Origin: a virus
Taxonomy: Duplodnaviria > Caudoviricetes
Direction: 5' to 3' (one strand)
DNA: 64,000 bases
IMG/VR virus record: IMGVR_UViG_3300015207_000465
Span: 39,410 to 103,409 of that record
This document shows, one piece after another, positions 901 through 50,210 of this stretch (positions within the stretch are counted from its first letter, which is position 1; every line of letters begins with the position of its first letter). The position numbers and the translations under genes were made by a program. A model generated the notes under the pieces. That model was not told the DNA's origin and ran no database searches. It worked only from the letters and a program-made list of their open reading frames with translations.

Positions 901-973
901 CGCGGGTTGGAGCAGTTGGAAGCTCGCCAGTTTAACTTGCTGGAGGTCGTGGGTTCGAGTCCTACACCCGCCA
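901..973 (+). tRNA. Initiator (fMet)-type tRNA body with AAC anticodon (predicted to read GTT)
   Basis: Full cloverleaf: acceptor CGCGGGT/ACCCGCC (C1:C72 mismatch), D stem GAGC/GCTC (A11:U24), anticodon stem CCAGT/GCTGG with loop TTAACTT (anticodon 934-936 AAC), T arm GTGGG-TTCGAGT-CCTAC, discriminator A; CCA not encoded. Confidence 0.9.
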
Positions 974-1004
974 CAAATAAAAATCACTTTTACAAACTTA
1001 ATCG

Positions 1005-1358
1005 ATGAAGAAGTTAAAACTACAAATCAATGCAGCACACTTTCAGGAAATACTTGAAGGAAACGCAAAGGTAGAAGAACGTTTCGTCTACCCCAACAAC
1101 GTAGACCGCTACGTGACTGAATCCGATAACCCGGATGGAACTGTTACCATCACTCCGATACCCTATGACTGCATTGAATTTTCATGTGGACGTAGTAAGA
1201 ACGCACGAAAAATGACCGTCGCAGTCAAGGAAGCGCAATTCATCGTCTTGACAGACGAGAATGGCGAAGACATGACCTATGAAGAAAACGGAGTCGAATA
1301 CGTGGTTTGCCAAGTATGGTACACACTTGGGAAAATATCAGATGTGGTTAATGCGTAG
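1005..1358 (+). CDS. ASCH/PUA-like domain protein
   Basis: N-terminal L.LQI...F.EILEG..KVEER pattern resembles ASCH. Confidence 0.55.
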   Translation: MKKLKLQINAAHFQEILEGNAKVEERFVYPNNVDRYVTESDNPDGTVTITPIPYDCIEFSCGRSKNARKMTVAVKEAQFIVLTDENGEDMTYEENGVEYVVCQVWYTLGKISDVVNA

Positions 1359-1399
1359 TGGTGTCAAGAAAAAAATAACCCCCTAAACATTATCTCACT

Positions 1400-1639
1400 A
1401 TGCCCAGACAAACTACAACCCAGAGAAACATCGCCCGCGCCGTTGGCGCGCAGCGATACAATGGCGGTGGCCGCTACGGTAGCGGTGGCGGCGGTCGCTA
1501 TGTAGGTGAACGCAGAAACGGAACGGCGACAAATAGCGGACGTCGCAATAGCCAACTTGGAACTCGCGAACAGAAACGCGCAGACCTCCGATACGCTTTT
1601 CGCGATGCTATTCGCGCTGCCGGCGGAACAACCGGCTAA
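1400..1639 (+). CDS. Small Arg/Gly-rich basic protein
   Basis: 79 aa, RYNGGGRYGSGGGGRY repeats, ends in Gly. Confidence 0.7.
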   Translation: MPRQTTTQRNIARAVGAQRYNGGGRYGSGGGGRYVGERRNGTATNSGRRNSQLGTREQKRADLRYAFRDAIRAAGGTTG

Positions 1640-1650
1640 CCGCGAGTCGC

Positions 1651-2427
1651 ATGAATAAGTTTGAAGAAACCATGCAAATAATTCGGAGTATCCGTCAAAA
1701 GACGGATACTGCCGTTTTATTTTATTCAGCCGGTGGAAAGGATGGCATCGCCTTGCTTGATATGCTTGCGCCGGTCTTTGAGAAAGTCATTTGCTATTAC
1801 ATGTGGCTTGTGCCGGGTCTTGACCATGTGAAGCCCTATCTGAAATGGGCGGTAACGAAATATCCCAACGTGGAAATAAGGCAGATTCAGCACTATCAAC
1901 GCGACTACTACGACCGCTATGGATTTTTTCAGCTTGGCGAGGGCAATCCCGACATCAAGCCGCGCAAAGTCGGCGAGGTGGAAGAGATGGTGCGCCAAGA
2001 AACAGGTATCAAGTGGGCGTTCAGCGGAATGAAAGGCGTTGACGGCTACATGAAACGTATGCGTCTGCTGACGTTCAGAAAAAGAAACGGAACATACCTC
2101 ACCGACAAGGGCATGGTCTACCCGTTGGCTGTCTGGACTAACAAGGAGGTGCTTCGCTACATTGAGATGCGGAATCTTATCAAGCCGTTTGTCTACAATC
2201 CCAAGGATGTAAGTCAAGGCTTCGGTGTGGATTTGCGCTCTTTACTTGTATTGCGACAACGATTCCCGCAGGACTACGAGCGCACCATCCGGGAATTTCC
2301 ATTTTGTGAAAAACTTATCTTCGACTATGAGAACGGCATACTGCCGCATGGTCAGGAAAAGGAGGTGCTTGAAATCATCAAACGCATAGAAACCGAATCA
2401 GAAATCGAATTAGAGAATGAAGCCTAA
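1651..2427 (+). CDS. PAPS-reductase-family (PP-loop adenylating) protein
   Basis: YSAGGKDG PP-loop, G.K..D...R and YPLAVWT motifs. Confidence 0.8.
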   Translation: MNKFEETMQIIRSIRQKTDTAVLFYSAGGKDGIALLDMLAPVFEKVICYYMWLVPGLDHVKPYLKWAVTKYPNVEIRQIQHYQRDYYDRYGFFQLGEGNPDIKPRKVGEVEEMVRQETGIKWAFSGMKGVDGYMKRMRLLTFRKRNGTYLTDKGMVYPLAVWTNKEVLRYIEMRNLIKPFVYNPKDVSQGFGVDLRSLLVLRQRFPQDYERTIREFPFCEKLIFDYENGILPHGQEKEVLEIIKRIETESEIELENEA

Positions 2428-3304: not shown

Positions 3305-3388
3305 AGTTTAATTCTTTTCTTTAATAATTGCTTGCGTAATTAAAGAATTTTGTTTATCTTTGCACTCTAAATAAGCGCTATTAAAAAC

Positions 3389-3658
3389 ATGAGTAATATA
3401 GAAAATAACAATAATTACTGGGCATTGCGATGCAAACTTAATGATGCACATAAATTTGTGACGCCGGAAGAAGTTGCGCGTTTTCGTAAGGATTACGCAG
3501 ATGTTTTTAGGTCTTACAAAGACGAAAACGGCTTGCGGGTTTATACCGACGAAGAAGTCCAGTTTGAAGCATACGAATATTACGACGATAAGGAAATCGC
3601 TACATTTATTCACCAAGGTCAAACGCCAAAAGGGTTGGCCGATACTATGACGATGTAG
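3389..3658 (+). CDS. Hypothetical acidic protein in AT-rich cassette
   Basis: ATG ORF downstream of a TATCTTTG promoter motif (~3355). Confidence 0.65.
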   Translation: MSNIENNNNYWALRCKLNDAHKFVTPEEVARFRKDYADVFRSYKDENGLRVYTDEEVQFEAYEYYDDKEIATFIHQGQTPKGLADTMTM

Positions 3659-3659
3659 A

Positions 3660-4286
3660 GTTAAGAGGCCTAAGTTTAAAAAAAGTTTCAACGAAGAGTT
3701 GAATCGTAAGTTGTCGGATGGTGGAATAAAACATCATCCCGATGGTTTATATCCTGCTGGGGTGGGTGAATTCCATAAAGCAATTAAAATTGCTAAAAGA
3801 AATAATGGTAATGGGTGGATGGTAGAGAAAAAGGGCAGGGGAAGTTATTCCGGGCTACGCCTCTTTATGTCTAAAGATAAGAAGATGGGATTTGCCTTAG
3901 ATGGCGATAATATAGTGTCTGTCTTTAGCTGTAAGCCAAAAGGAAGTAATGCGATGGGTAAAATTATCCCATTTGCAGTAGCCATGGGTGGCAGAAGATT
4001 GGACTGTTTCGCAGGTGGTCTTCAAAATCTTTATGCCAAGTATGGTGCGCGTCCAACAGGAAAAACACATTTCGACGAGCGATATGCGCCTCCCGGGTGG
4101 GATGGAAAGTCTCATCATCCAATTGTAGCGATGAGATTGCCAAACTCCCTTGAAAAATTGATTAAGGCTTACAACCCAAGACAAAAAGTCAGCCTTAACG
4201 GGGTGCGGTATTATTCTTCGTATAATGACATGGAAAATTCAGCGAGAAAGCGTGGTGCAAGGAATAATATTAAACAAAGCTCTTAG
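3660..4286 (+). CDS. Basic hypothetical protein with GNAT-like segment; probable GTT start
   Basis: Frame opens at GA-GTT-AA one base after the upstream TAG; first ATG is codon 54; VSVFS...GG.RLDCF...L..LY..YG resembles GNAT-like folds. Confidence 0.6.
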   Translation, partial: VKRPKFKKSFNEELNRKLSDGGIKHHPDGLYPAGVGEFHKAIKIAKRNNGNGWMVEKKGRGSYSGLRLFMSKDKKMGFALDGDNIVSVFSCKPKGSNAMGKIIPFAVAMGGRRLDCFAGGLQNLYAKYGARPTGKTHFDERYAPPGWDGKSHHPIVAMRLPNSLEKLIKAYNPRQKVSLNGVRYYSSYNDMENSARKRGARNNIKQSS

Positions 4287-4332
4287 AGGCGCACTTGGCG
4301 GTGGAAAATAACTAACCTACACAAATACGATT

Positions 4333-4926: not shown

Positions 4927-4953
4927 CCCTATAAACGAAGAAAGGAGGTCACA

Positions 4954-5013
4954 ATGAAATCACGCAAATCATGCGGCGGCAAGAAGAAGCCCGGCAAGGG
5001 TGGTAAATGCTGA
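4954..5013 (+). CDS. Putative 19-aa K/G/C-rich peptide (MKSRKSCGGKKKPGKGGKC)
   Basis: Preceded by AAGGAGGT and followed by a stem-loop. Confidence 0.4.
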   Translation: MKSRKSCGGKKKPGKGGKC

Positions 5014-5091
5014 CAACGAAACGAAGATAAAGGTCAGTCGGAAAATTACACAATCCCCGGCTGACCATAAACCCTTAAAAAGCAAAGCAGA

Positions 5092-5292
5092 GTTAGACGC
5101 AGGAAAACAAGAGAACAAATAGAAGCCCAAGCATCGCGCCTCAGTGAAGCTAATTGGCGCAGGCGTAATGTGTGGGAAAGCGGCACCGCATCCCGTAGGG
5201 CAAAAGAGTCACGCGACCGATTGATAGATAAAGCCGAGAAGCGTGCTTTAGTTCAAAACGGATTAAGAATGGCGACCGGGGGGGGCAAATAG
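5092..5292 (+). CDS. Small Arg-rich basic protein (66 aa) with probable GTT start; absent from ORF track
   Basis: A-rich leader then GA-GTT-AG; reads (V)RRRKTREQIEAQASRLSEANWRRR...MATGGGK; the only ATG is near the end. Confidence 0.65.
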   Translation, partial: VRRRKTREQIEAQASRLSEANWRRRNVWESGTASRRAKESRDRLIDKAEKRALVQNGLRMATGGGK

Positions 5293-5311
5293 CACACTCC
5301 GTTCAAGGATA

Positions 5312-5381
5312 TGCGTGTTAGAGAAGCGGTCATCTCGCCGTCATCAGACGGAAATCGCAAGTTCGACTCTTGCACACGCAG
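5312..5381 (+). ncRNA. tRNA-like RNA with collapsed (4-nt) anticodon loop
   Basis: TGCGTGT/ACACGCA acceptor, GAGA/TCTC D stem, CCGTC-ATCA-GACGG arm, GCAAG-TTCGACT-CTTGC T arm. Confidence 0.75.
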
Positions 5382-5415
5382 CATAGAAAAATAACGGAAT
5401 TTCATTATCACGACA

Positions 5416-6087
5416 ATGCCGAAGAAGCGAATTAGCAACAAGACACCGCGCAAGCCCAAGGCAACACCCTCGTTTGACTACGAGAGTGAGGAATTTCTGT
5501 CGCGCATTGATGCACTTGCTTTTGAGGGCTTTTACAATACGGAAATCGCTGACGAATTGAACATTAGCCGATACGAATTGGAAATGGCGATAAGTCAGTG
5601 CGAAAAATTGCGCAACACGATAGCGTCTGCCCGCGAGCGTGCGCGTGCGCAAGGCGCGGAAATGCCATCACCCGCTATGTTCGCAAAGGTCTGGGCTGAA
5701 TGTAACGGAAAGCGCACCCTACTGATGAAAAAGTTCGGAATTGGCTGGACTAAACTGCAATCGTGGTTGGCGCAAGAGCCGATATTCGTAGATATAATGG
5801 CGGAACGCGACCTTGAATTTCTTGAGCAGATTGATGTCGCCAGCCGCATCCTTGCATTGGGCGGTGTGAAAGGAAAGGACAACTTTGCGGGATGGAGTCG
5901 CTACCCCGACAGTTGGATGATGCGCTATCATCTGAATACACTCGGAAGACGATACGGCTATGGCGAGAATCCTATCCAACAGGAAGCCGAAGACACCGAC
6001 ATTCCGAAGAATATTGAACAAGGAATCGATATTGAAAGCTGGATTAAGCAGGAAGTGGAACAAAAGAAGCGTGATACGGAACAATGA
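5416..6087 (+). CDS. Probable terminase small subunit
   Basis: HTH-like segment (EIADELNISR); ATGA overlap with the large terminase. Confidence 0.65.
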   Translation: MPKKRISNKTPRKPKATPSFDYESEEFLSRIDALAFEGFYNTEIADELNISRYELEMAISQCEKLRNTIASARERARAQGAEMPSPAMFAKVWAECNGKRTLLMKKFGIGWTKLQSWLAQEPIFVDIMAERDLEFLEQIDVASRILALGGVKGKDNFAGWSRYPDSWMMRYHLNTLGRRYGYGENPIQQEAEDTDIPKNIEQGIDIESWIKQEVEQKKRDTEQ

Positions 6088-8336
6088 TAATCAACCATGA
6101 GATATATTACCCCCTTTATACCGACAAGGAGCATTTCATCATCCTTGTTACGGGCGGTCGTGGCTCTGGTAAATCATTCGGAATCGGCGGCTTCATAGAA
6201 CGCCTATCGTTTGAATTGAAGCGCAAAGGCTATTCCAATTCAGACACCGATAAGATAGTCCACAACGTACTTTACACGCGCTACACGATGACGAGTGCCA
6301 GCATTTCCGTTATCCCCGAGTTCTTGGAAAAGATAGACCTTGACGGCACGGGCAGGTATTTCCGCACAACGAAATCGGATATTGTCAACAAGATGACCGG
6401 CAGCCGCATCATGTTCCGCGGCATCAAGACATCATCGGGCAATCAAACCGCCAAGCTGAAATCAATTCATGGCATCACAACCTTTGTATGCGACGAAGCG
6501 GAAGAATGGACTTCTGACCGCGAGTTTGAAACAATCGCCTTTTCCATCCGTCAGCCGGGTATCCAAAATAGGATTATCATCATAATGAACCCGACCGACA
6601 GTAATCATTTCATCTATCAGAAATACATCAAGGATACGCACCGGATTGAGTATTTTGACGGATTCCCCGTGCAGATTTCCACGCATCCGCAAGTGCTTCA
6701 CATCCACACTACATATCTTGACAACAAAGCCAATCTATCGGAAGAGTTCATCAAGTCTGCACAGGAGATGAAAGAGCGCGACCCGGAACGGTACGCCCAC
6801 ATCTTCATGGGCAGATGGGCAGACGTAGCCGAGGGTGCGGTCTTCAAGAAATGGGGCATCGTCAAAGAATTTCCGAAAAACTGCAAACGTGTGGCCCGCG
6901 GTCTTGACTTTGGATATACCAACGATGTCAGCGCGTGCGTGAAATGCGGCATCATCGGAAACGACCTTTACATCGACGAACAATTCTTCAAGTCCGGGAT
7001 GCTTTCTTCCGAGCTGATAAAAGCACTGCGCGAAGATGATTCTTTCGTCTACGCCGACAGTGCCGACCCGCGACTGATTGACGAAATCGCCCTCGGTGGC
7101 GTAATCATCTACCCGGTTGCGAAGCCAGCCGGAAGCATCATCGCCGGCATAGAAAAGATGAAATCGTTTGACAACATCTTCATCACGGAACGCTCGCTGA
7201 ATGTTCAGGACGAGTTCAGAAATTATGTGTGGGCGAAAGACAAAGATGGTAACTACATCAACGTGCCGGAAGACAGATTCAACCACTGCTTTACAGGCGA
7301 TACACTAATCATGACAACAAAGGGACAAATACCCATCTCGGAAATAACCACAAATGACTATGTGCTAACATCAAATGGTTGTAAAAGAGTAGAAAACACA
7401 TTTAATAATGGACTCAAGAAGATATTGCATATTCGGTTGATTTTTGCTAATTTTGTAGTTGAGTTAAAAGGGACACCAGACCATAAAATAAAGACAGTTG
7501 ATGGATGGAAACAACTACAAGAATTGACAAAAGGGGATGTGCTATACTTGTGCAAACCTTTAATGGAAAGGAGTACTCGCTCTATCCCGGAGAAAGATAC
7601 TTCTCGCGAGGATGTAAGCGATTACACCGCGTCGTCTGGGAGTATTATTACGGTGCAATCCCCAAAGGGTGTCACATCCACCACAAAGACGGTGATACCC
7701 ACAATAACGAAATCGGAAACCTCGAAATCGTGGAGTGTAAAAAACACCTATCGCTACATGCTGAAGAGCACAACGACAATCCTGAAATGCTTGCCGAGCT
7801 GCGTGATAGAATGGATTATGCCAGAGGGTATGCAAATAAATGGCATCGTTCAGAAGAAGGCATCGAATGGCATAGAAAACACGGCAAAGAGGTGGCAGAG
7901 AATCTTGAGCCGATTGAATTTACGTGCCAATGGTGTGGAAAGAAGTTTATGTCCAAGCCATGTGGAGCTAACAAATTCTGCTCAAACGGATGTAAAACGA
8001 AGTTCAGATACCATTCCGGTATTGACAACGAAACAAGAATTTGCAAGCAATGCGGCAAAGAGTTTGTCGCAAACAAATACTCACGAACTTACTATTGCTC
8101 CCGGCGATGCTCGGGATTGCATAGCGCAGCCGTGCGTCCTGAAAGGGATAGAGATAGTAGCGGAAAATACCGCTAAAGTATACGACATACAGGTTGCTGA
8201 CATACACGAATATTTTGCAAATGGAATACTCGTGCATAATTGTGTCGATGCCTCTCGCTACTATGTCTTGGGCTGCATCCTTGGCAAAATACTCAAGCCG
8301 AAGAATGTAAAGAAATCTGATTTAGGAATATTCTAA
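6084..8336 (+). CDS. terL: Terminase large subunit (PBSX-type) containing an intein
   Basis: Walker A GGRGSGKS, Walker B FVCDEAEE, GLDFGY nuclease motif; NH|C.DA.RY motif interrupted by the intein. Confidence 0.95.
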   Translation: MIINHEIYYPLYTDKEHFIILVTGGRGSGKSFGIGGFIERLSFELKRKGYSNSDTDKIVHNVLYTRYTMTSASISVIPEFLEKIDLDGTGRYFRTTKSDIVNKMTGSRIMFRGIKTSSGNQTAKLKSIHGITTFVCDEAEEWTSDREFETIAFSIRQPGIQNRIIIIMNPTDSNHFIYQKYIKDTHRIEYFDGFPVQISTHPQVLHIHTTYLDNKANLSEEFIKSAQEMKERDPERYAHIFMGRWADVAEGAVFKKWGIVKEFPKNCKRVARGLDFGYTNDVSACVKCGIIGNDLYIDEQFFKSGMLSSELIKALREDDSFVYADSADPRLIDEIALGGVIIYPVAKPAGSIIAGIEKMKSFDNIFITERSLNVQDEFRNYVWAKDKDGNYINVPEDRFNHCFTGDTLIMTTKGQIPISEITTNDYVLTSNGCKRVENTFNNGLKKILHIRLIFANFVVELKGTPDHKIKTVDGWKQLQELTKGDVLYLCKPLMERSTRSIPEKDTSREDVSDYTASSGSIITVQSPKGVTSTTKTVIPTITKSETSKSWSVKNTYRYMLKSTTTILKCLPSCVIEWIMPEGMQINGIVQKKASNGIENTAKRWQRILSRLNLRANGVERSLCPSHVELTNSAQTDVKRSSDTIPVLTTKQEFASNAAKSLSQTNTHELTIAPGDARDCIAQPCVLKGIEIVAENTAKVYDIQVADIHEYFANGILVHNCVDASRYYVLGCILGKILKPKNVKKSDLGIF
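7287..8240 (+). mobile_element. Intein (318 aa) in TerL nuclease domain
   Basis: Begins CFTGDT, block B GTPDHKI, ends VYDIQV..HEYFANGILVHN followed by Cys+1. Confidence 0.92.
7505..8176 (+). CDS. HNH endonuclease with C-terminal Cys-rich zinc fingers, in an alternative frame inside the intein
   Basis: LHRVVWE...IPKG.HIHHKDGD..NN...NL HNH motif plus two CxxC...CSxxC repeats; 223 aa. Confidence 0.88.
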   Translation: METTTRIDKRGCAILVQTFNGKEYSLYPGERYFSRGCKRLHRVVWEYYYGAIPKGCHIHHKDGDTHNNEIGNLEIVECKKHLSLHAEEHNDNPEMLAELRDRMDYARGYANKWHRSEEGIEWHRKHGKEVAENLEPIEFTCQWCGKKFMSKPCGANKFCSNGCKTKFRYHSGIDNETRICKQCGKEFVANKYSRTYYCSRRCSGLHSAAVRPERDRDSSGKYR

Positions 8337-8347
8337 CACTACCAGAT

Positions 8348-14320: not shown

Positions 14321-15604
14321 TCATTGTTGTTTGATTTCAGCAGTCACGCCGTTAGTGTCGGTCACGTCTGCCGGGTTAATCGTTTTTGCGGTATCGGGAT
14401 TTTCAGCAGCCACCGACAATCCTAAATCGCAGAAGCCCTTGCAAGCTCCGCGATAGCCGTTGAAAAATTCAGTGGCGGTCATGCGTCGCTTGTTCGGCAT
14501 CTGCAATTCAAGTACGGAAAGAAGATTGTCGCCACAGGCGATGTATAGCTTTCGGTCTTGCCAGAATAGCTCGCCGGGCGCATGGTGGCCACGCGGTATG
14601 TCGGTCTTTTCCGTTCTGAAAATCTTGACGCTCATGGCCTGCTTTCCAAGCATGGCCAGTGAAGTCCAAGCTGATGGGATTGGAGTAAGTGCGCGTATGA
14701 AGTCATAGACGTAATCGGCGGGCTTGAGCCACGGAATGATGCAGTCCTTGCGATGTAGCTTTGGCGCGTAGCATGGCTGGATGAAGTCACAGATAAGCTC
14801 CGACTGAGGAATGGGGTTGCATGAATGGGCTATGCGCTGGATTGCATCGTCTATCATTTCCGCGCCGGCAATGCGTAGCTTGATGTGAACGTCTTCCGCG
14901 TTATCATCTTCATCAATGCCGATGGCAAGATTGTTTATGATGCCGCCGGTGTCGATTTTGTCTTCAAGCATGAACGTTGTCACGCCGGTCATGGCATTAC
15001 CATCCTTGATTGCGGATGCGATGGTGGAAGCACCGCGATACATGGGCAGCATAGATGAGTGGAGGTTGATTGTACCCCACGACGGAATGGTGTATAGCGC
15101 ACGTGGCAGTATTCTGAACTCCACTACTACGCCGAGCGTCGCATGAAGATTGTGGATGTGCCGCAGAAATCTATTAGAGTCAAGTTTCCGTGGTTGAAAA
15201 ACAAGGATGCCCATAGATTCGGCATAAACCTTGACCGCAGATGGCCGCAGTTTCTTGCCACGCCCGCACGGTTTATCTTCCATAGTTACGACTGCCGCGA
15301 CATCATATCCGTTTTCAACAAGCATTTTTAGCGTGGGAAGCGCAAACTGCCCATTGCCGAAGAATATGATGCGTATTCCCTTGCGTGATACAGGCTTGTC
15401 AAAATCACGTTCCGGGTATGAAACAATATCAGTTTCGTCAACAATTACATAACCGCCGGATTTCTTCAATCGCAGAAAGTAAGAGCCATCATCTTTTGGG
15501 TATAAGATTTTGGCTTCCGTAAAAATACCGCCCCCATCATTACCGTGCAGGAGTCTGCTTGGAATTTGGACTGTCTGCCCGACGCGATAAAGAGGTGTTT
15601 TCAT
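14321..15604 (-). CDS. fmt: Methionyl-tRNA formyltransferase homolog, divergent, with ~75-aa N-terminal extension
   Basis: RIIFFG...FALPTL, VVT..DKP.GRG, INLHSSMLP.YRGA..I, TGVTTF....IDTG, YAPKL, IRAL.P.P.AW and ELQ...KRRM...F..G cover both Fmt domains. Confidence 0.92.
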   Translation of the reverse strand: MKTPLYRVGQTVQIPSRLLHGNDGGGIFTEAKILYPKDDGSYFLRLKKSGGYVIVDETDIVSYPERDFDKPVSRKGIRIIFFGNGQFALPTLKMLVENGYDVAAVVTMEDKPCGRGKKLRPSAVKVYAESMGILVFQPRKLDSNRFLRHIHNLHATLGVVVEFRILPRALYTIPSWGTINLHSSMLPMYRGASTIASAIKDGNAMTGVTTFMLEDKIDTGGIINNLAIGIDEDDNAEDVHIKLRIAGAEMIDDAIQRIAHSCNPIPQSELICDFIQPCYAPKLHRKDCIIPWLKPADYVYDFIRALTPIPSAWTSLAMLGKQAMSVKIFRTEKTDIPRGHHAPGELFWQDRKLYIACGDNLLSVLELQMPNKRRMTATEFFNGYRGACKGFCDLGLSVAAENPDTAKTINPADVTDTNGVTAEIKQQ

Positions 15605-21810: not shown

Positions 21811-22899
21811 GTTAATCAGTCATTTTATTTCGATTACGCAAAGCGTTTCTTCCCCGGCCTTGTGCTGGCTATCGTAGAACGCCTCAACGAGAAGCGTGCC
21901 AATTCCGCTCTCACCTACCTTTACAAAGAAAAACTTCGCCCGCAGTTTTCGCTTGATGGCCGCTGGGCTTCCATCCTTGCGGAATACACCCGCGTAGCCG
22001 CCGACGTTGTGGCACTTGACTCCGAGCTTCCGCTCAAGAGCCGTGACACACTGGAGGTTGCTTCCGGCACAATTCCCAAAATCGGTATGAAGCTCTACCT
22101 GACCGAAAAGCAGATGAAAGACGTTGACTCGATGATTGCGCAGGGTGTTCCCCTCCAGACCATCATCGACAACATCTTCGCTGATACCCCCCGTTGCATC
22201 GAGGGCATCTGGGAGCGCATCGAAGACATCTTCCTTTCGGAGCTTTCGTCGGGTGTCGGCGTTTCCGAGCGCAACAACGGCACAGGTGTGCGCATCAACA
22301 TGAATTTCTATGACGACAACCAGTTCGCTGTTTCCAAACTTTGGAGCAACACCGACGCAACTCCGCTTGACGACATCCAGAAACTTGTTGACAAGTCCAT
22401 TACCGACGCAAACACCATCATCGACGCATACGCTGACGACACCGCCCTCGGTCTTCTCTACAAGAACAAGCAGGTGCGTTCACAGTTCGCGTTCAATCAG
22501 GGCATCGCCATGACCGGTTCGACCACCGTGCCGGTGCTTGACTTTGCGAAGCTCCAGCAGATTTTCCTCACCAAGTGGAACATCAATCTGCACCGCGTCG
22601 CCCGCCGTGTCAAGACCGAGCTTAACGGCGAAAAGAAAAACCATACCCCGTGGAAGACCGGAACAATTTCCTTTGTCTGCGATGAAGAGCTTGGCTCACT
22701 CGTATGGACTAACGTTGCCGAGGCTTCGCGCCCCGTTGAAGGCGTTGTCTATCAGACTGCCGACCAGTACATCCTCGCAAAGAAATATTCCAAGACCGAC
22801 CCCCTCCGCGAGTTTACCGCTTCCGAGGCTATGGTTGTGCCTGTGTTGAACAACGTTGACCGCATCTACACGCTCGACACTCAGACAGTTCAGGAATGA
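21811..22899 (+). CDS. Major capsid protein (362 aa), probable GTT start
   Basis: AADVVA.DS..P...R, G.IPKIG.K..L.E motifs; frame reads GTT AAT CAG TCA TTT TAT from 9 nt after the upstream stop; first ATG is codon 93. Confidence 0.8.
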   Translation, partial: VNQSFYFDYAKRFFPGLVLAIVERLNEKRANSALTYLYKEKLRPQFSLDGRWASILAEYTRVAADVVALDSELPLKSRDTLEVASGTIPKIGMKLYLTEKQMKDVDSMIAQGVPLQTIIDNIFADTPRCIEGIWERIEDIFLSELSSGVGVSERNNGTGVRINMNFYDDNQFAVSKLWSNTDATPLDDIQKLVDKSITDANTIIDAYADDTALGLLYKNKQVRSQFAFNQGIAMTGSTTVPVLDFAKLQQIFLTKWNINLHRVARRVKTELNGEKKNHTPWKTGTISFVCDEELGSLVWTNVAEASRPVEGVVYQTADQYILAKKYSKTDPLREFTASEAMVVPVLNNVDRIYTLDTQTVQE

Positions 22900-24620: not shown

Positions 24621-25169
24621 GTTACAAACAACGCACCCAAAGTTTGCGCGGTCGGCATCAAAAAGCTGTACTATGCCGACACCAGCAAGGTAACGGCAGA
24701 CCTTACCGGCGCATTGCTCGCCGCACTGCTTGCCGACGAAGCCACCAAGGAAGTCAAGAACATCCATCAGGACACGTGGACTATCGAAGAGAGCGAAGCC
24801 TCGCAGGACGGCTATCGCAATCAGCTCACCGGTTCTATCTACCGCATGGGAACGAAGACCATGGGCGACGTAACTTTCAACTGGACTATCGGTCAGTACG
24901 ACTATCCTACCAAGGCTGAGTTCCTCGGTGGTGTCGCTACCGACAAGTCGTGGAAGCGTCCCCGCGGTGTCGTCGAAATCCACAAAGTCCTCATCGCACT
25001 CACCGAAGACAATCAGTATTGCGTTCTGCCCTACGCCAACGTAGCCGGTCGTGAAGCCAACACCGACGGCGCAGTAGGTCTGGGTATCGTCGGAACGGCA
25101 ATGGAGCCTACCGACCCCAACATCGCATCCGAATACTGGTTCGACTCTTCCGAGGTAGTGACCGCGTAA
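24621..25169 (+). CDS. Major tail (tube) protein (182 aa), probable GTT start
   Basis: In-frame TAA at 24597, then GA-GTT-AC reading (V)TNNAPKVCAVGIKKLYYAD; first ATG is codon 76; position before the chaperones. Confidence 0.75.
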   Translation, partial: VTNNAPKVCAVGIKKLYYADTSKVTADLTGALLAALLADEATKEVKNIHQDTWTIEESEASQDGYRNQLTGSIYRMGTKTMGDVTFNWTIGQYDYPTKAEFLGGVATDKSWKRPRGVVEIHKVLIALTEDNQYCVLPYANVAGREANTDGAVGLGIVGTAMEPTDPNIASEYWFDSSEVVTA

Positions 25170-35032: not shown

Positions 35033-35038
35033 AACCTA

Positions 35039-42449: not shown

Positions 42450-42504
42450 TTAAGCGAGGTCAGTTTAAGCCGGCCTCGCTTTCGTTTTATGACCTTTGCG
42501 TATT

Positions 42505-45500
42505 ATGCTGACCATCTACGATAACAAAGGCGTAAAACGCTTTGAAACGCCAATTAACAAAGGCTCTAAACGTGTCTTCAAGTTAATGGCAGACGACTAT
42601 GTGACGCTAATTTTCAGCGTCGCAAAACCTATCTATTTCAAGTTAGGCGATTATTGCGACATACCCGGATTTGGTAGGTTTGAACTTGTATCGCCTTATA
42701 AGCCGGTCTACAATCGTGCAACCAATGGCTATGACTACGAGTTAAGGCTGGATGCGCAACACATGAAATGGCGCAATAAAATCATGCGCTATCTGCCCAA
42801 GACCGGAGGTGCTGAATGTGCGTGGTCACTGACTGCGACCGCCGACGTGCATTTGGCACAGGTGCTTGAGAATATTGAAGCTCTGGTAACTGAAACGCTT
42901 ATGAATGGCGATAAGGTTATCAATCAGCGATATTTATACAATGGCGCGACGAAATGGGCCACGTTGATAGATGGCAGCGTGGAGGCATCGGCAAAGACAA
43001 TCAGCTACGACAGCACAAACATAATCGACGCACTTACGGCAATCGCGGAAGCATTTGAATGTGAGTGGTGGCTGAATGGCAATATCATCTGCCTCGGAAA
43101 ATGCGAAGAAACCAACGAATACGTTGACCTTGAAATCGGCATAAACGTAGCCGAGATGTCAAGAAGTGACTCGTCGGAAGACTATGTGACGCGCATCTTG
43201 GCGTTTGGCAGTGAGCGCAACATATCGCCCAGATACCGCAAAGACCTCCTTTTTGATGTCAAGGAAATAGCCAATGGCGGCAATCGTGTCAGCGATACAA
43301 GCCGACCGCTGGAGGCTGAATGGTTTGCATCTTCTATGGTGGAAACATCGTCAAGCGACAATACCCTCAAGCGCGTCAAGGGCATCACGATTGAAATCAT
43401 CGACTCCACCGGTGCGGTCACGACCACGCTGAATGGCGTTATTTACAACCCGGACTATAAGAGCGGAATATCGGATAAGAACTGGCTTCAACTGCCGAAT
43501 GGCGCAGTCATGCAAGCCGGTCAGCGTTTCCGCATCAAGAATATCATTGAAAGCAAGGTCAAATCAAGCTATTTTTCCAGCCGTTACTCCGCTTATGATG
43601 ATATTTCCAATGTGGTGCGCAACGGCATCGTGACAAGCCGATTGATGCTCCCTGTGTCGCACGGAACGCCCTATATCGACTATAAGCCGGGGCTGTCCAT
43701 GGAAGAAGGCGTGGAAGATGTCGTTGTATTTGAAGATGTCTATCCACGTGCAGTTTGCGCCATCACAAAGATTGATACCGTGCAGCGCAAAGAAACCATC
43801 CAGAACGATGACGGAACGACAACCGAAACGACCTTTACCGCTTACAAAATCAAGGATGATTTCTTCACGTCTGCGCATCCCTTTGAAAATGATTACATCG
43901 TACCCAATGAAACGCTCAAGATAACATTCCAAGACGGAAAGCGATATAAAGAGGGCGATGTCATCCCGGATGGTAAGAAAGTGGGCGACCTTATCAATCC
44001 TGAAAGCGGAAAGCTGAACGGATGGACTTTTGAGGTGCAATTCACCAAAGACAAGGATGGCTCGGCTATCTGGGAAATAGTCAGGGATAACGAGGTCTTC
44101 ATACCGAATGAAATCCTATGCCCTGAAATCGGCGACCAGTTTGTGCTGACCGGCTTTGATATATCGGTTGTCGATGACCTTTATGTGGAAGAAGCGGAAA
44201 AGGAGCTGCTTGACAAGGCGACCAAATACCTTGAAAAGCTAAACACCGACCCATCTACATACGATTGCACAATGATGCCCGACGTAATGAAAGCCGGGCT
44301 GACCCTCGGACTCGGAAAGCGCGTCAATCTAATCAACGATGCGTTCATTGAAACCACCACCGACGCAAACGGAAGAAAGTGGGGTCGCAAGAGCCGTGTC
44401 ATTGGCTATGAAATTCCCCTTGATATTCCGTATGACAATCCCGTCTACACCATTGGTGAAAAGGCGGCATATTCCCGCTTTGGTGAAATTGAAGACAAAA
44501 TCGACGCACTGAAATTCTCCATGACCGCAGGCAAGAATTACCTTGGCGGTTACTATTCCGATGGGTCTTCATCATCCAATGGCGGCATCTACGTCATCAA
44601 GCAGACCGACATCACGCCGGCAAGCGAAATCAACGTATTCTCGGCACTGCGCAGCTACCTTGAATTTACATCCAAAAAGGCAAAGGAAATCATCAATTAC
44701 CTTTGGACTTTTATGCAGGGCATCCGCGTAGGCAACTATGTGATGAATAACGATGGCGCGAAGATTGACCCCAATGGCGATGCGGAATTTAACGATGTCG
44801 TAATCCGCAAGGGTGCATCGGTAGGTACTGACCTTAATGTTGGCGGTGATGCTACTGTTGGGAACGAGCTAACTGTCAAAAAAGGCGTGACCATCGGCGA
44901 CTACTATCAGCCGGGTGCGTATGGTGGTCGCATCTGGATTGATGGCCTTGGAAAAGTACACATTGAAACCGACTATCTTGATGCAAGGGAGAAGATTGAA
45001 GCCAAAGAGGTGGAAATTCAGGAAGAAACCCACGTCGGTGGCTGTCAGATTATATCCCCGGCGGCTATGCGCTGCTCAAGGGTAATTCCAATATACAATG
45101 ATGCCAACAGCGTTGTTGCTTATAAATGTTTCTTCACTGCGGAAGATGAAACCGGCACTCAGATTTTCAACCAGTTTGAGGTCGGTGACTTGGCTAAATG
45201 CGAAACATTCAACCTGACCAAGCAGCCAAACGGAAAGATGGGCAACCATTATTATTGGCGCAAGGTTACGGAGGTCGGCTACGTCAACAAGGGCGATGCT
45301 GATTACGATGACGATTTCGGTATGGAGGGTTATATTGTTGTTTCCAACTTGCCGAAAGAAAAAGATACGGGCAGCGATGCTCCTTTGGCCGGCGACCGCA
45401 TTATTACCGTCGGCAACGATGACCCGGCAAAGGCAGACCGCTCCAATCTTATCATCCTTGCAAGCTACGGAAGCGGAAGCCCCTACATCTATCAGTATAA

Positions 45501-48500
45501 GGGCATCAACACCTTTGCGCTGACGAAAGACAATCTCAAGGTGGCAATATCACCCAACGGCAACCTTTTCACCGGTAAATTCGTCATTGAGAACGGAACG
45601 GAAGAAGTTGATGTCGTTGACTACATTGAAAACAACATCTATCTTGAGGCATATCAGCTTGTACTTTCCAACGAGATGGCCGGTGTGCCTTGCGATGTCA
45701 ACGGCAATATTATCGGCGACCTGCCAAGTTCAAAGATTACAGTCTTTAAGGGCAAGACCGTTGAAACCGACTGGACTCTTTCATCGGAAGCCATCGGCTG
45801 TAAGGCATCCATCGTTTCTGACCATGTATATCTATCGGAATTGACCGACAAGAACGCCACGGTCACGATTACAGCCACAAAGAAAGACTGCCCCACGCTG
45901 ACAAAGGTAATGACCATCTGCAAGCTCAAAGAGGGCGAAGCGGGCGTTTCCGGCGACCACGCAGTGCAGTTTGAGATTGAGCCTGACAAGCCCATGGTGC
46001 TTGCCGACATGGATGGCGTGTGCGACCCCGCCAACCTTGGGTGTAAGGTCTACATGGTTATCGGCAATCAAAACCGCGTTGAGGTTCCACTTGCCAACAC
46101 TGCGGCCATCACGACCTACAAGGCAGGCGATAAATTGCTTTTCTTCAACGGCAGATTGTTTGTCAGCCGACCCGTTGAAGTTGATGTTCCCACCGACCTT
46201 GTTTTGCGTTACGTCATCGTCAACCAAGACTATGTTACCGATGAAACAACCGGCAAGGTGTCGCCAGTTATAACGTCGGAAACAGAGCATATCTATACCG
46301 GCAAGGCTATTGAGATGTCGGCAAGGATGAAACACATCATCTTCAAACTATATCGTGGAAACACACTTATCGACATGCAGACCGTTGTTGTGACTACCGA
46401 CGCATCTGCGATGAAAGTGGTGTATGATACGCGCTTTGAGGTCAATGAAAAGGAAATCTTTGCCCATGCAAGCCGAATATCGCAGACGGAAAAGGATATT
46501 GCCGAGTTGCGCATTACGGCAGATGGCATTTCCGCGAACATCGGCAAACAGATGGGCATCATTCAGGACATCATCAATGGCGCAGGGCGAAATCTTCTCT
46601 TGAAGACCAACTCGGCAGGTGTATGGAAATACGCATCCGACAGTATGTCTAACGCATCGACCATAGGTCTTCTGAACAATCCCAACAACGCCACCAATTT
46701 CTATGTAGCACCACGCACCGACTCCACATACGAGATATTCTACTATCCCATTCGCCCGGAACTGATAAAACAGGGCGAAAAGTACACGTTCACGGTCAAC
46801 ATCAAGAATAAGACCAATTCGGTGTCTGACGTTCTTGAGTTTTACGCAGTGATAGCAAACACCAACTCGTCTGTACAACTGACGAAAACGGCATACTTTG
46901 ACGTGGTTGTAGGAAATGGCGAGTACCGATTGACCGTTGAACTTGAAGCCAGCGCAACGGGAACAAAGACCGGTACTCAAGTGCTGATTTTGGGTATTGT
47001 GCCGGCAAGAATAAACACATGGACTGCCATCTCGCTTTGGCATCCCAAACTTGAAAAGGGGTCAACAGCCACCGCATATTCCGAAGCACCGGAAGACCGC
47101 GAGGATTACCTTTATGCCGAGCTGAACACCAAAATCGACGTTACGGCAGAGGGGTTGCGGTCAGAGGTTACAAAGAAGATTGGTGAGTCGGAAGATAGGA
47201 TTAACGCTGAACATAAATCCCTTATCCAGCAATCAGCCGATGAAATTCTTGCACAGGTGGAAGCATGGGATGACGAACTTGGCGCAAGTATATCGGAAAT
47301 ACGTCAGACCGCAAACAGCATCAGCCTTAAAGTGCAAGAGCTTGCCGGCTACGAAAACCTTGTGACTGGAAATAGAACTGGAACTGGTTGGCTTTTACAA
47401 GACTATACCACTGGTGAATTTGTAGACACCACCCCAGACGAGAATGGTCAATACATAATAGCCGTTGGTGATACGTCGGAAAGAAGATTGCGTACATCTC
47501 TTTTCAATCTTCAAGCAAATACCAAATACACCCTTTCGTTTGTGCGTGGTAGTATAAATGCTAACACGAGTGGCTTTGCCATTGAAATAAAATATGGGGA
47601 TGCAGGAACTATTTTGCATAGCAAAACATTCCTTGCTAATGCAATGGTGAATGAAATCCGCGAAACGCTGACTTTCACAACTGGAGATAGTGTGGTAGAG
47701 AACGCTTTCATCGACTTTATCCATCGTGGAAATCGCCCCAACGTGCAAATGTCAACCATGATGCGCATATCGCAAGTAATTCTTGAGATAGGCGAAATCG
47801 CACACCCTTATGTGGAAGACGCGACAGGTTTGTTGGCGACAGGTATTGATATTATCAATAGGAAGATTGTATTCACATCCGACAATATCATATTCCGAAA
47901 CAACAAGGGCGAGCAGTCTATGTTCATAGACAAGGATGGTCGTATCCTTGCAAAATTTATCAATGTAGAAGAGTTGCACGTAGACCATCTTATCGCCGGT
48001 GATGAAGATGGCGAATGTGTGGAAATAGACCCCGTTCAGAAAGCTATCTACATCTATGACATTAACCATGAGCTTTGCACGACCATAAACGGTGAAGCGC
48101 ATCCCGGTGGTATCAATGAAATTTACAAGGAAGTTACAGGTGGCTCAATAGACCTCTATACAGCTATAAATGGCAACCAAATATCAAATGGCGGTTTTAG
48201 CTTTTACGGAGATAATTCAGGCATAGAAAAATCGCAGAATTATAAGGTATATTCCAAATCATGGCCGGCAGATGCCGCACCTATTGTTGAATTTAGTCAA
48301 GGCCGTATCTATTGCCACGCATACGCCCCCGGTTTTTACAAGCAAAGGAAAGATAATTTATCATACGGTGCTGATACAATCGTCAGCATGGAAGATATGA
48401 GGCCATATTTCGCATCGGTCTATGTATCGGTTTGTCTGGAGGTTGCGGATGATGAGAATTTCACCCAAAATGTAAAAACTTTCGGCATACATAATACGGG

Positions 48501-49290
48501 AGTGGGCGCAGATTCCGGGTTGAAAGATCCGACAAATATCTACGAGGGTCAATATTGGTACGAACCCGATGACCGCAACAACATCCGCGATTACGACCCA
48601 GCATATTCCCTGATGGATAATAGACGAGTTAAGGCTACGAAAAAAGGTTATTGCAGAATTGTGATGACTATCAATTTCCAAGCAAAGGGCTATAGAAGTT
48701 ATGCGGAAGTAAAGTGGGGGTCTAATCATAGCGGCAGCAAAAATCTTGCAGCATCATGGAGTGGCGAGTTCTATGTCAGCAATTTCTTTGCCAATGGATA
48801 CTGTCTTGGTATTTCCAAAAATCAGTATGTGACGGCTTACAAGGACAAGAACGACCACATGCACTTTGAAGTGGAGGATGTCAAGTACGGAATAAAAATA
48901 TCAGACGATGGTATAAAGATTAAGCATCACAGCGGCAATTTTATGCCGATGCCGTTGCTTGTGTATCGCGCCAATATTTATTACACATCATCCTCTAATA
49001 CATACGGATCATCTAAGTCTACATCCTTTGACGGAAACTACCCGACCATTTCAAAGGTTGGGGATAACGCCGGGCTTGTGCGCATTAAATTCCCTGATGC
49101 GTGGAGTGCTTTGTCGCTATCCGAAAATAACACCATTGTTCACATAGAGGGATGGTCGAGAGCGTCAAAAAGCACATTCCGGATGAAAGGTAGTATCCGT
49201 AGTATATCAAATACGGAAATAAAAGTTGAAATATCCGATGACGCATCAGCTAACGATGGCGATTTTACCATTGAAATTTATGTAATCTAA
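42505..49290 (+). CDS. Large tail-tip / host-specificity protein
   Basis: ~2260 aa; TRILAFGSERN, V.FEDVYP, SRVIGYE..LD.PYD.P.Y.IGE; TADGI/GRNLL and KLEKG..AT.YS.APED modules typical of phage tail proteins. Confidence 0.8.
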   Translation: MLTIYDNKGVKRFETPINKGSKRVFKLMADDYVTLIFSVAKPIYFKLGDYCDIPGFGRFELVSPYKPVYNRATNGYDYELRLDAQHMKWRNKIMRYLPKTGGAECAWSLTATADVHLAQVLENIEALVTETLMNGDKVINQRYLYNGATKWATLIDGSVEASAKTISYDSTNIIDALTAIAEAFECEWWLNGNIICLGKCEETNEYVDLEIGINVAEMSRSDSSEDYVTRILAFGSERNISPRYRKDLLFDVKEIANGGNRVSDTSRPLEAEWFASSMVETSSSDNTLKRVKGITIEIIDSTGAVTTTLNGVIYNPDYKSGISDKNWLQLPNGAVMQAGQRFRIKNIIESKVKSSYFSSRYSAYDDISNVVRNGIVTSRLMLPVSHGTPYIDYKPGLSMEEGVEDVVVFEDVYPRAVCAITKIDTVQRKETIQNDDGTTTETTFTAYKIKDDFFTSAHPFENDYIVPNETLKITFQDGKRYKEGDVIPDGKKVGDLINPESGKLNGWTFEVQFTKDKDGSAIWEIVRDNEVFIPNEILCPEIGDQFVLTGFDISVVDDLYVEEAEKELLDKATKYLEKLNTDPSTYDCTMMPDVMKAGLTLGLGKRVNLINDAFIETTTDANGRKWGRKSRVIGYEIPLDIPYDNPVYTIGEKAAYSRFGEIEDKIDALKFSMTAGKNYLGGYYSDGSSSSNGGIYVIKQTDITPASEINVFSALRSYLEFTSKKAKEIINYLWTFMQGIRVGNYVMNNDGAKIDPNGDAEFNDVVIRKGASVGTDLNVGGDATVGNELTVKKGVTIGDYYQPGAYGGRIWIDGLGKVHIETDYLDAREKIEAKEVEIQEETHVGGCQIISPAAMRCSRVIPIYNDANSVVAYKCFFTAEDETGTQIFNQFEVGDLAKCETFNLTKQPNGKMGNHYYWRKVTEVGYVNKGDADYDDDFGMEGYIVVSNLPKEKDTGSDAPLAGDRIITVGNDDPAKADRSNLIILASYGSGSPYIYQYKGINTFALTKDNLKVAISPNGNLFTGKFVIENGTEEVDVVDYIENNIYLEAYQLVLSNEMAGVPCDVNGNIIGDLPSSKITVFKGKTVETDWTLSSEAIGCKASIVSDHVYLSELTDKNATVTITATKKDCPTLTKVMTICKLKEGEAGVSGDHAVQFEIEPDKPMVLADMDGVCDPANLGCKVYMVIGNQNRVEVPLANTAAITTYKAGDKLLFFNGRLFVSRPVEVDVPTDLVLRYVIVNQDYVTDETTGKVSPVITSETEHIYTGKAIEMSARMKHIIFKLYRGNTLIDMQTVVVTTDASAMKVVYDTRFEVNEKEIFAHASRISQTEKDIAELRITADGISANIGKQMGIIQDIINGAGRNLLLKTNSAGVWKYASDSMSNASTIGLLNNPNNATNFYVAPRTDSTYEIFYYPIRPELIKQGEKYTFTVNIKNKTNSVSDVLEFYAVIANTNSSVQLTKTAYFDVVVGNGEYRLTVELEASATGTKTGTQVLILGIVPARINTWTAISLWHPKLEKGSTATAYSEAPEDREDYLYAELNTKIDVTAEGLRSEVTKKIGESEDRINAEHKSLIQQSADEILAQVEAWDDELGASISEIRQTANSISLKVQELAGYENLVTGNRTGTGWLLQDYTTGEFVDTTPDENGQYIIAVGDTSERRLRTSLFNLQANTKYTLSFVRGSINANTSGFAIEIKYGDAGTILHSKTFLANAMVNEIRETLTFTTGDSVVENAFIDFIHRGNRPNVQMSTMMRISQVILEIGEIAHPYVEDATGLLATGIDIINRKIVFTSDNIIFRNNKGEQSMFIDKDGRILAKFINVEELHVDHLIAGDEDGECVEIDPVQKAIYIYDINHELCTTINGEAHPGGINEIYKEVTGGSIDLYTAINGNQISNGGFSFYGDNSGIEKSQNYKVYSKSWPADAAPIVEFSQGRIYCHAYAPGFYKQRKDNLSYGADTIVSMEDMRPYFASVYVSVCLEVADDENFTQNVKTFGIHNTGVGADSGLKDPTNIYEGQYWYEPDDRNNIRDYDPAYSLMDNRRVKATKKGYCRIVMTINFQAKGYRSYAEVKWGSNHSGSKNLAASWSGEFYVSNFFANGYCLGISKNQYVTAYKDKNDHMHFEVEDVKYGIKISDDGIKIKHHSGNFMPMPLLVYRANIYYTSSSNTYGSSKSTSFDGNYPTISKVGDNAGLVRIKFPDAWSALSLSENNTIVHIEGWSRASKSTFRMKGSIRSISNTEIKVEISDDASANDGDFTIEIYVI

Positions 49291-49301
49291 AAATCCCCAA
49301 T

Positions 49302-49763
49302 ATGCCCGAATTAGATACAACCACAAAATATCAGCTTACCGAAGCGGAAAAGACCGATTTGGTCGCCCAGCTCAAGCAATCCTTTACCGATGGCTCTACA
49401 AAGGTGGAAATATCGGAAACATCCAAGGCTGACATCGTTTCGCAGATTTCAAACAAGCTTTCATCCGGCACGTTATCCGTGAACATCAGCGAAGCCGATA
49501 AAGCCGACATCATCCAAGAAGTGCTTGCGGAACTGTATGCAAAATCACAGGGCACCGCGACATTGGAAAAGGTCGGCAATCTTGACGGCGTAACATCAAT
49601 CCCGGCGGTCAGAGATGATAAAGACATCGTAGCCGTGCCGCTCAATCTTCTTATGACAAGCAAGCCCATAGAGGTTAGCGGTCAGCAAGACATCAATATT
49701 CTTGTGGCGCAAGGCAAGATAGTTGACTCCCAGTTTTATTTCACCCCCGTAGAAGACGAATAA
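49302..49763 (+). CDS. Hypothetical tail-region protein with three internal repeats
   Basis: EAEKTDLVAQL / ETSKADIVSQI / EADKADIIQEV. Confidence 0.6.
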   Translation: MPELDTTTKYQLTEAEKTDLVAQLKQSFTDGSTKVEISETSKADIVSQISNKLSSGTLSVNISEADKADIIQEVLAELYAKSQGTATLEKVGNLDGVTSIPAVRDDKDIVAVPLNLLMTSKPIEVSGQQDINILVAQGKIVDSQFYFTPVEDE

Positions 49764-49764
49764 T

Positions 49765-49938
49765 ATGCTTTGGATTGGAAATAAAGAGGTCGGTCAGCTT
49801 TGGATAGGCCAAAAGCAAGTGCAAGCCCTTTATGTCGGAGCTAAACTTGTATGGGAAGCCGTCAGCAGTTGCTTCGGTAGCGGCTTTTGGCGAGAAAAGC
49901 TACCATGGAAAGGGAAAGACGCATGGAAAAATTTTTAA
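49765..49938 (+). CDS. Small Trp-rich protein (57 aa)
   Basis: MLWIGNKEVGQLWIG...LVWEAVSSCFGSGFW...; read by hand. Confidence 0.6.
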   Translation: MLWIGNKEVGQLWIGQKQVQALYVGAKLVWEAVSSCFGSGFWREKLPWKGKDAWKNF

Positions 49939-49958
49939 CCCCAAATACTGTATAACGA

Positions 49959-50210
49959 GTTAAGAAAATCACAAAATGGATTAAGGAAAGCAATCGCTAC
50001 AAGCATCTCGCAGGGGGCATCGCAATAGGCATGGTCAGCAATACGCCTTATTGCGCTGCCCTTTGCGGCTGTGGCGTTGCATCCGCACTTGAGCTAAAAG
50101 ATAAGCTCTGGGGCGGTGAATGGGATTGGATAGACTGGTCGCTGACCGTCGCCGGTGTCGCCATCGGCTATTCCATCCGAGTAGGCATCACATTACTGAT
50201 TAAATCCTGA
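49959..50210 (+). CDS. Small membrane protein (83 aa), probable GTT start; absent from ORF track
   Basis: GA-GTT-AA then KKITKWIKESNRYKHLAGG...LELKDKLWGGEWDWIDW; fills the gap between the flanking genes; first ATG is codon 25. Confidence 0.7.
   Translation, partial: VKKITKWIKESNRYKHLAGGIAIGMVSNTPYCAALCGCGVASALELKDKLWGGEWDWIDWSLTVAGVAIGYSIRVGITLLIKS

Follow-up and report, generated by a model that had tools for sequence, protein, structure and literature searches.

The DNA analysed here, 64,000 nt long and referred to as the window, is the final 64 kb of a 103-kb provirus record (IMGVR_UViG_3300015207_000465, positions 39,410 to 103,409). We conclude that this mouse-gut prophage very probably encodes a private initiation channel, in which a tRNA derived from the host initiator and bearing the anticodon AAC [tRNA(AAC)] would start translation at GUU. 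The tRNA gene (positions 901–973, + strand) heads the packaging and virion half of the prophage. Five genes in this half, including those of the major capsid protein and of a putative tail tube protein, open at GTT and would depend on tRNA(AAC). Bacterial start-codon identity is regarded as fixed, with AUG, GUG and UUG served by one initiator tRNA. A virus with its own sense-codon initiator tRNA would constitute a natural recoding of initiation.

An initiator tRNA with a swapped anticodon arm

The original prediction placed initiator hallmarks and an AAC anticodon together in the tRNA at 901–973, and ARAGORN, Rfam, direct reading and homology to host tRNA-fMet all bear this out. ARAGORN called positions 901–974 as tRNA-Val(aac), and the Rfam tRNA model matched 901–973 with 47.2 bits. 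Read directly, the tRNA has an unpaired C1×C72, the pairs G2:C71, C3:G70 and A11:U24, and A73; the paired 1:72 and purine 37 of elongator tRNAs are both absent. The anticodon stem is CCAGU/GCUGG and the loop UUAACUU, with U at position 37 and AAC in place of CAU, the anticodon of methionine identity and AUG decoding. The initiator hallmarks of the acceptor and D stems were found as predicted. Of the three anticodon-stem G:C pairs of bacterial initiators (29:41, 30:40, 31:39), only G30:C40 is present, flanked by A29:U41 and U31·G39.

For comparison we used the initiator tRNAs of Lepagella muris (L119:1468-1540) and Paramuribaculum intestinale (L120:1392-1464), two Muribaculaceae hosts that carry related prophages. 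Both host initiators begin with CGCGGG and end with CCCGCCA, with C1×C72 and A73 as in the phage tRNA, and the D and T arms are near-identical too. The alignment departs from near-identity only in the 17-nt anticodon arm, which reads UUGGG/CUCAUAA/CCCAA in the hosts (CAU, three G:C pairs) and CCAGU/UUAACUU/GCUGG in the phage (AAC, one conserved G:C pair). The phage molecule is therefore an initiator tRNA with a swapped arm and not a valine tRNA.

This anticodon arm was picked up by pattern scans in 28 contigs of IMG/VR and 10 genomes of GTDB. These genomes belong to Paramuribaculum, Lepagella, other Muribaculaceae, Barnesiella, Bacteroides and Algoriella and include a Bacteroidales metagenome-assembled genome (MAG), a 'Porphyromonadaceae' MAG and one MAG labelled as Lachnospiraceae. 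The same water-deer caecum study yielded an identical AAC initiator-type tRNA on Lachnospiraceae-binned and Bacteroidales-binned contigs (L093 and L101), and the Lachnospiraceae label may be a binning error.

The bodies of the tRNAs that carry the arm fall into several clearly distinct types. We counted base pairs in an alignment of 23 sequences, made up of 21 distinct phage variants and the two host initiators. All 20 pairs of the four stems were formed in 100% of the sequences, 12 of them with compensatory changes. Position 1:72 was unpaired in 22 of the 23 (20 of the 21 phage variants), as C×C, C×U, U×U, U×C or A×A, the exception being one U:A. The formyltransferase determinants G2:C71 (23/23) and C3:G70 (22/23) and the D-stem pair A11:U24 (21/23) were present in nearly all sequences. 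Pairing of every stem position save 1:72 is, as judged from this alignment, the signature of selection for the acceptor end of a bacterial initiator.

A control search that left positions 37–43 free also returned elongator-type tRNA-Val(AAC) genes from the tRNA arrays of large phages (L130, L133, L135 and L137). In these, a purine occupies position 37 (...UUAACA), and the 5' end is complementary to the 3' end. The initiator-type AAC tRNAs from the same search had U37 U38 G39 C40 in all cases.

The existence of such elongators in large phages and the ARAGORN typing as tRNA-Val would both fit an ordinary elongator tRNA that serves GUU codons, the GTT starts being read weakly by the host initiator tRNA. 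We consider this extremely unlikely, given the unpaired 1:72, the A11:U24-type D stem and the near-identity to host tRNA-fMet, traits that set the window tRNA apart from the true elongators. Moreover, two of the three bases of GUU do not match AUG, and under the elongator reading the proteins most abundant in the virion would rely on a start that works very poorly. In an Escherichia coli set of 64 reporter codons, AUG, GUG and UUG were the strongest starts, and GUU rose only with an engineered initiator tRNA(AAC) (bioRxiv 10.1101/2021.05.25.445580).

The flank upstream of the tRNA gene is conserved among relatives in the clade. It holds TAATTTAG (880–887), 14–21 nt upstream of the tRNA, which we take to resemble the Bacteroidota −7 promoter box TAnnTTTG. 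This likeness suggests that the tRNA has a promoter of its own.

Five genes open at GTT in a common context

In nearly all genes of the window, an ATG comes no more than a few codons after the preceding in-frame stop. Five genes are exceptions: the first ATG in their frames lies 24–92 codons in, and GAGTTA is found 1–9 codons past the in-frame stop in each of them. These five GTT starts, at 3660, 5092, 21811, 24621 and 49959, had been predicted, and each was recovered in its GAGTTA context with no canonical start nearby. The + strand of the window has 10 copies of GAGTTA, half of which (5/10) are in start-like positions, defined as in frame, no more than 10 codons from the upstream in-frame stop, in an open reading frame (ORF) of at least 60 codons and without a canonical start close by. 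Positions of this kind account for 0.8% of the window, which gives a binomial P of about 8×10−9. GAGTT-type starts were absent from the left 39 kb of the record, outside the window, where the integrases and the replication module lie.

The window DNA recurs in mouse-gut metagenome contigs of at least two studies, without differences at the GTT sites, and an assembly error is thereby excluded. On mouse-gut contigs of a related strain, the bases around the capsid start are altered and GAGTT is retained.

The first of the five genes (3660–4286, + strand; context GTAGAGTTAAG) encodes a 208-aa protein of phrog_2563. Its orthologues in L001, L005, L008 and L098 read CGA GTT AAA AAG CCA, and downstream canonical starts are not conserved among them. 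The second gene (5092–5292, + strand) encodes a 66-aa Arg-rich protein that begins V-R-R-R. Homologues in L005, L108 and L009 align with it from residue 1, and in L108 and L009 a TGA stands immediately before the GTT.

The major capsid gene (21811–22899, + strand; context TCAGAGTTAAT) was identified by Pfam Phage_cap_E and phrog_29. In nine relatives its start reads TGA GTT AAA CAG TCA, so that the stop abuts the GTT, and in one relative TAA CGA GTT AGA. In the relatives, at least 17 codons after the GTT encode a conserved peptide and show synonymous changes. The capsid gene of the Lepagella muris prophage, which has the tRNA and the phage formyltransferase (Fmt) as well, opens with AGA GTT ACA CAG.

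The gene at 24621–25169 (+ strand; context AACGAGTTACA) encodes a virion-module protein of phrog_14600, which is called putative tail tube from its genome position. Positions 4–176 of the phrog_14600 profile align with residues 8–180, and the first canonical start is codon 32. The last of the five genes (49959–50210, + strand) encodes an 83-aa protein of phrog_38535, the profile of which (positions 2–77) aligns with residues 2–77. A TAA lies two codons upstream of the GTT, with only two codons between this stop and residue 2, and the first canonical start of the ORF is codon 25, within the conserved protein.

Could the proteins begin at downstream canonical codons, GAGTTA being a non-coding signal such as a promoter, a processing site or a ribosome-loading site? 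Canonical codons are indeed available 13–31 codons downstream in the window (GTG at 21862, TTG at 24714, TTG at 3699 and internal ATGs), and the Pfam and PHROG profiles of the capsid cover only residue 59 onward. However, these codons are not conserved in relatives, whereas the peptide that precedes them is. Codon 18 of the capsid gene, GTG in the window, is GTT or ATT in relatives; codon 32 of the tail tube gene, TTG in the window, also varies, so that GTT, ATT or CTC are found at the two positions. The PHROG profiles, moreover, reach residue 8 of the 24621 product and residue 2 of the 49959 product. Together with the codon-for-codon ATG in homologues of the 83-aa protein (see below), this makes initiation at the downstream codons very unlikely.

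Two further explanations of the GTT genes were considered, namely a fusion with the upstream gene through frameshift or readthrough, and coupling by termination and reinitiation. Neither was retained, since the upstream stop lies at varying distances and in varying frames among sites and relatives. The holin gene had been put forward as a weaker sixth GTT case, with a start at 58940. This candidate was rejected: its context is CAGTTA, an ATG follows eight codons on, and the holin Pfam match begins only at residue 25. The gene most likely starts at that ATG (58964–59431, + strand). An apparent AAG GTT start of the terminase gene in L105 proved spurious, as this gene has an ATG (10675) that overlaps the 3' end of the gene before it.

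ATG and GTT replace each other in homologues

If GTT starts depend on the tRNA, homologues in phages without it should have ATG at the equivalent codon. This expectation was confirmed by the alignments. In the family of the 83-aa protein, the window and three close relatives read (A/C)GA GTT AAG AA(A/G). Among 45 more distant homologues, on contigs without the AAC tRNA, 40 carry their ATG precisely at the codon that aligns with this GTT, and the remaining 5 within a few codons of it. MKKILNWLK and VKKILNWLK are N-termini that exemplify the exchange. In the tail tube family, 10 close relatives have (C/A)GA GTT, and 70 homologues at 59–64% identity have an ATG a few codons away.

The predicted co-occurrence of tRNA and GTT starts was likewise observed. 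The 28 contigs that carry the tRNA pattern include no contig of the ATG class, whereas the tRNA is present on each of the three GTT-class contigs that extend over both loci.

GAGTT starts also occur in lineages with other tRNA bodies, namely in the ParB-like gene of L104 and in Arg-rich small ORFs of L009, L108 and G007–G009. The ParB-like gene has ATG in the window and TGA-GTT in L104, with N-termini no more than three residues apart. A like exchange is seen in a gene for an Arg/Gly-rich protein of 79 aa (1400–1639, + strand), which has an ATG start in the window. In other lineages, its orthologues lie just 3' of the tRNA and start with GTT; the C-terminal motif ...REQ(K/R)RADLR.AF...IRAAGGTTG is common to all of them. 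More generally, the Arg-rich 53–68-aa family, typically found ~450 nt downstream of the tRNA, has GTT in most lineages and ATG at position 1400 of the window. These comparisons reveal switches between ATG and GTT that took place independently in other lineages with the tRNA.

The Arg/Gly-rich proteins (53–79 aa) form two paralogous families, represented by 1400–1639, 5092–5292, L001:4393–4593 and L108:1890–2087. Both families begin V-R-R-R and have a Gly-rich tail (AAGGTTG, AAGSVG or GLSAG). For these small proteins, Pfam, PHROG and Atlas gave no lead.

Start sites may be read as a five-base word

G and A occupy positions −2 and −1 at all five GTT starts of the window, compared with 4 of 60 ATG starts of the same record. 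The GTT starts of relatives always have A(−1) and nearly always G(−2), with A, G or C at position +4. The mRNA sequence 5'-GAGUU-3' is complementary to A34 A35 C36 U37 U38 of the phage tRNA, with a terminal G·U pair, against A37 A38 in the host initiator.

The presence of U37 U38 in all initiator-type AAC tRNAs, together with GA before GTT, suggests a five-base pairing. Start sites may thus be recognised via four or five base pairs, GAGUU with AACUU, in which G(−2) A(−1) G U U of the mRNA would face U38 U37 C36 A35 A34 of the tRNA. Such extra pairing could offset the A/U-rich codon, the weak anticodon stem and the lack of Shine–Dalgarno guidance in Bacteroidota. A related effect is on record for E. 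coli tRNAfMet variants A37G and A37U, in which complementarity of position 37 to mRNA position −1 raised translation (PMC10018350).

Probable charging with valine and the phage formyltransferase

A35, C36 and A73 are identity elements of valyl-tRNA synthetase (ValRS), and methionyl-tRNA synthetase requires CAU. All three ValRS-type bases are present in the window tRNA, and host ValRS would most likely charge it with valine.

The original prediction also assigned a formyltransferase to the prophage as part of the system. The gene at 14321–15604 (− strand) does encode a genuine Fmt, with the Pfam domains Formyl_trans_N (E=3×10−29) and Formyl_trans_C (E=3×10−19) and a score of 217.6 bits against the NCBIfam equivalog TIGR00460 (cut-off 201.5). 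The protein aligns over its full length with solved Fmt structures (PDB Fmt E=1×10−45), including the HxSLLP-type motif, and has an N-terminal extension of ~75 aa. The extension (15340–15604, − strand) has no Pfam match and is conserved in the phage homologues, which are found at 57–87% identity in related ~100-kb phages and the Lepagella prophage. Host Fmt lacks it and is only 40–42% identical to the phage protein. Divergence from host Fmt and the extension shared within the clade point to an old phage lineage of Fmt that is co-inherited with the tRNA in the ~100-kb clade. As to its place in a general system, the prediction did not stand: Fmt was not found in the smaller phages whose AAC tRNAs have other bodies, one of these phages being 94% complete. 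Being confined to the ~100-kb clade, Fmt is an accessory and not a requirement. A search of the 103-kb record for a peptide deformylase found none.

We infer that phage Fmt formylates Val-tRNA(AAC), since it belongs to the Fmt family and is inherited together with the tRNA. Alternatively, GUU initiation could use another amino acid or proceed unformylated, with Fmt serving some other end such as boosting general initiation. This would fit the absence of Fmt from other AAC-tRNA phages and its location 13 kb away from the tRNA gene and on the other strand. We regard it as unlikely on account of the ValRS-type bases, the CAU requirement of the methionine enzyme, and the joint inheritance of tRNA and Fmt across clade members that have diverged as far as their Fmt identities indicate. 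An engineered initiator tRNA(AAC), furthermore, yields N-terminal Val and fVal (formylvaline) (bioRxiv 10.64898/2025.12.21.695813).

Proposed mechanism and points against it

We propose the following course of events. The tRNA(AAC) retains the features for P-site binding, formyltransferase recognition and avoidance of EF-Tu (unpaired 1:72, G2:C71, C3:G70, A11:U24 and G30:C40) and would pair with GUU rather than AUG. Once charged by ValRS, it would probably be formylated, with help from phage Fmt in the ~100-kb clade, and the formylated tRNA would then initiate at GUU. Capsid and tail synthesis would hinge on a single phage tRNA, and this would provide a simple switch. Possible benefits, on which we can only speculate, are gating of virion synthesis, silencing of leaky expression in the lysogen and resistance to defences directed at the initiator tRNA.

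A fuller version of the proposal is a complete natural module of Bacteroidota phages, in which a GUU initiator reads GAGUU with the whole of A34–U38 and is joined in the large clade by a valine-adapted Fmt and perhaps by the RNA at 5312–5382 (see below), with capsid and tail strictly dependent on the phage. We judge the case for this version to be evenly balanced.

Several observations weigh against GUU initiation by the tRNA(AAC). In E. coli, the three anticodon-stem G:C pairs are important to the initiator; two of them are missing here. U37 is uncommon among tRNAs, and an unmodified A34 is rare among bacterial tRNAs. The smaller AAC-tRNA phages do without Fmt, which is hence not required, and show only one obvious GTT start, that of an Arg-rich small ORF. 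The argument for five-base pairing is drawn from conservation. Finally, homology-free tests of codon-level and 5-mer enrichment were noisy, swamped by spurious frames and by 'GA' derived from TGA; when stop-derived GA was excluded, 13 of the 54 GTT sites found on the strand of the tRNA were preceded by GA, compared with 7% for all codons.

Relation to engineered and natural systems

The literature searched yielded engineered systems and no natural non-CAU initiator tRNA in phages; the original prediction, too, named no natural counterpart. The combination of AAC tRNA and GTT starts has the appearance of a private start codon that arose in nature and belongs to a virus, whereas such start codons had so far only been engineered.

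The closest counterpart is the E. coli initiator tRNA(AAC) of the Jaschke laboratory, which initiates only at GUU and mainly with Val or fVal (bioRxiv 10.1101/2021.05.25.445580, 10.64898/2025.12.21.695813). Its output is limited by ValRS charging and by Fmt, overexpression of which gave a 3-fold gain; the Vmax of Fmt on a Val-charged initiator is cited there as ~60-fold lower (10.1101/2021.05.25.445580; 10.64898/2025.12.21.695813). These bottlenecks of charging and formylation provide a rationale for the phage's own Fmt. It has also been argued that the rigid stem with three G:C pairs hinders ValRS (10.1101/2021.05.25.445580; 10.64898/2025.12.21.695813) and that the middle pair G30:C40 alone is critical for initiation (10.64898/2025.12.21.695813).

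The engineered and the phage tRNA share the initiator scaffold, the AAC anticodon and the cognate GUU start. Unlike the phage tRNA, the engineered one is man-made and changed in the three anticodon bases only. The phage tRNA has a relaxed stem (A29:U41 and U31·G39, with G30:C40 kept) and U32, U37 and U38, and in the phage the system includes the matching GA at −2/−1, native virion genes and a diverged Fmt of its own. The relaxed stem, U37/U38 with the GA context and a dedicated Fmt are testable design hints for synthetic tRNA(AAC)/GUU systems, of which the phage version would be one that evolution has already optimised.

In records of cultured phages, the AAC tRNA was matched at no more than 84%. 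The matches are initiator-type tRNA-Met(CAU) genes of Erwinia phage phiEa21-4 and relatives, 83–84% identical over the whole tRNA; as they are annotated tRNA-Met, no change of start codon is implied.

Suppressor tRNAs of gut phages reportedly recode stop codons. There, too, a phage tRNA alters the meaning of a codon for late phage genes. Stop-codon recoding, however, acts in elongation and termination, whereas the AAC tRNA would act at initiation and on a sense codon, leaving elongation decoding unchanged. In practical terms, GTT starts would explain why major phage genes are truncated or missed in gene calling from gut metagenomes.

Gene layout of the prophage and other tRNA-like RNAs

From position 901 onward, the tRNA is followed by a phrog_625 protein gene, the small Arg-rich ORF, a PAPS-reductase-like gene, the ParB-like gene (ATG), the 3660 gene (GTT) and a gene for an endolysin-domain protein. 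Then come the 5092 gene (GTT) with a tRNA-like RNA, the large terminase gene (ATG) and the portal gene (ATG), and farther on Fmt (− strand), the capsid gene (GTT), the putative tail tube gene (GTT), giant tail-fibre-like ORFs and the 83-aa gene (GTT). Cultured carriers of such prophages are Lepagella muris NM04_E33, Paramuribaculum intestinale DSM 100749 and Muribaculaceae Isolate-036, which makes the proposed GUU initiation testable at the bench.

The tRNA-like RNA at 5312–5382 (+ strand) was detected by ARAGORN, by its folding stability (z=−2.3) and by conservation; the Rfam match to this element was at chance level only. It forms a cloverleaf with normal acceptor, D and T arms, in which the place of the anticodon arm is taken by a hairpin of 4–5 bp with a loop of 3–4 nt that varies in sequence among relatives. 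The acceptor and D arms are initiator-like (U1:A72, G2:C71, C3:G70 and A11:U24). The RNA is conserved in L005, L002, L004 and L007, with covariation in the T stem, and RNAs of this type always lie directly 3' of a GTT-start small ORF. The RNA possibly belongs to the initiation module. A further tRNA-like gene lies on the prophage's own record, outside the window (L202:15028–15129; Rfam 48.9 bits). It has a 31-nt insertion in the anticodon arm, and ARAGORN calls it only when introns are allowed.

The large terminase (6084–8336, + strand, 750 aa) is matched by PHROG profiles in two blocks, residues ~12–403 and 511–728, a pattern that suggests an inserted or extra domain. Two giant ORFs on the + strand, 42496–49290 (2264 aa) and 50216–56104 (1962 aa), lie on either side of the 83-aa gene and presumably encode tail-fibre or tape-measure-like proteins. 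The phage region has, at its right end, a full transfer-messenger RNA (tmRNA) gene (60105–60502, − strand; 129.6 bits) with the tag GENNYALAA. Beyond it lies a long ORF with a GTG start in apparent host DNA, and the tmRNA locus probably marks both the integration site and the beginning of host DNA.

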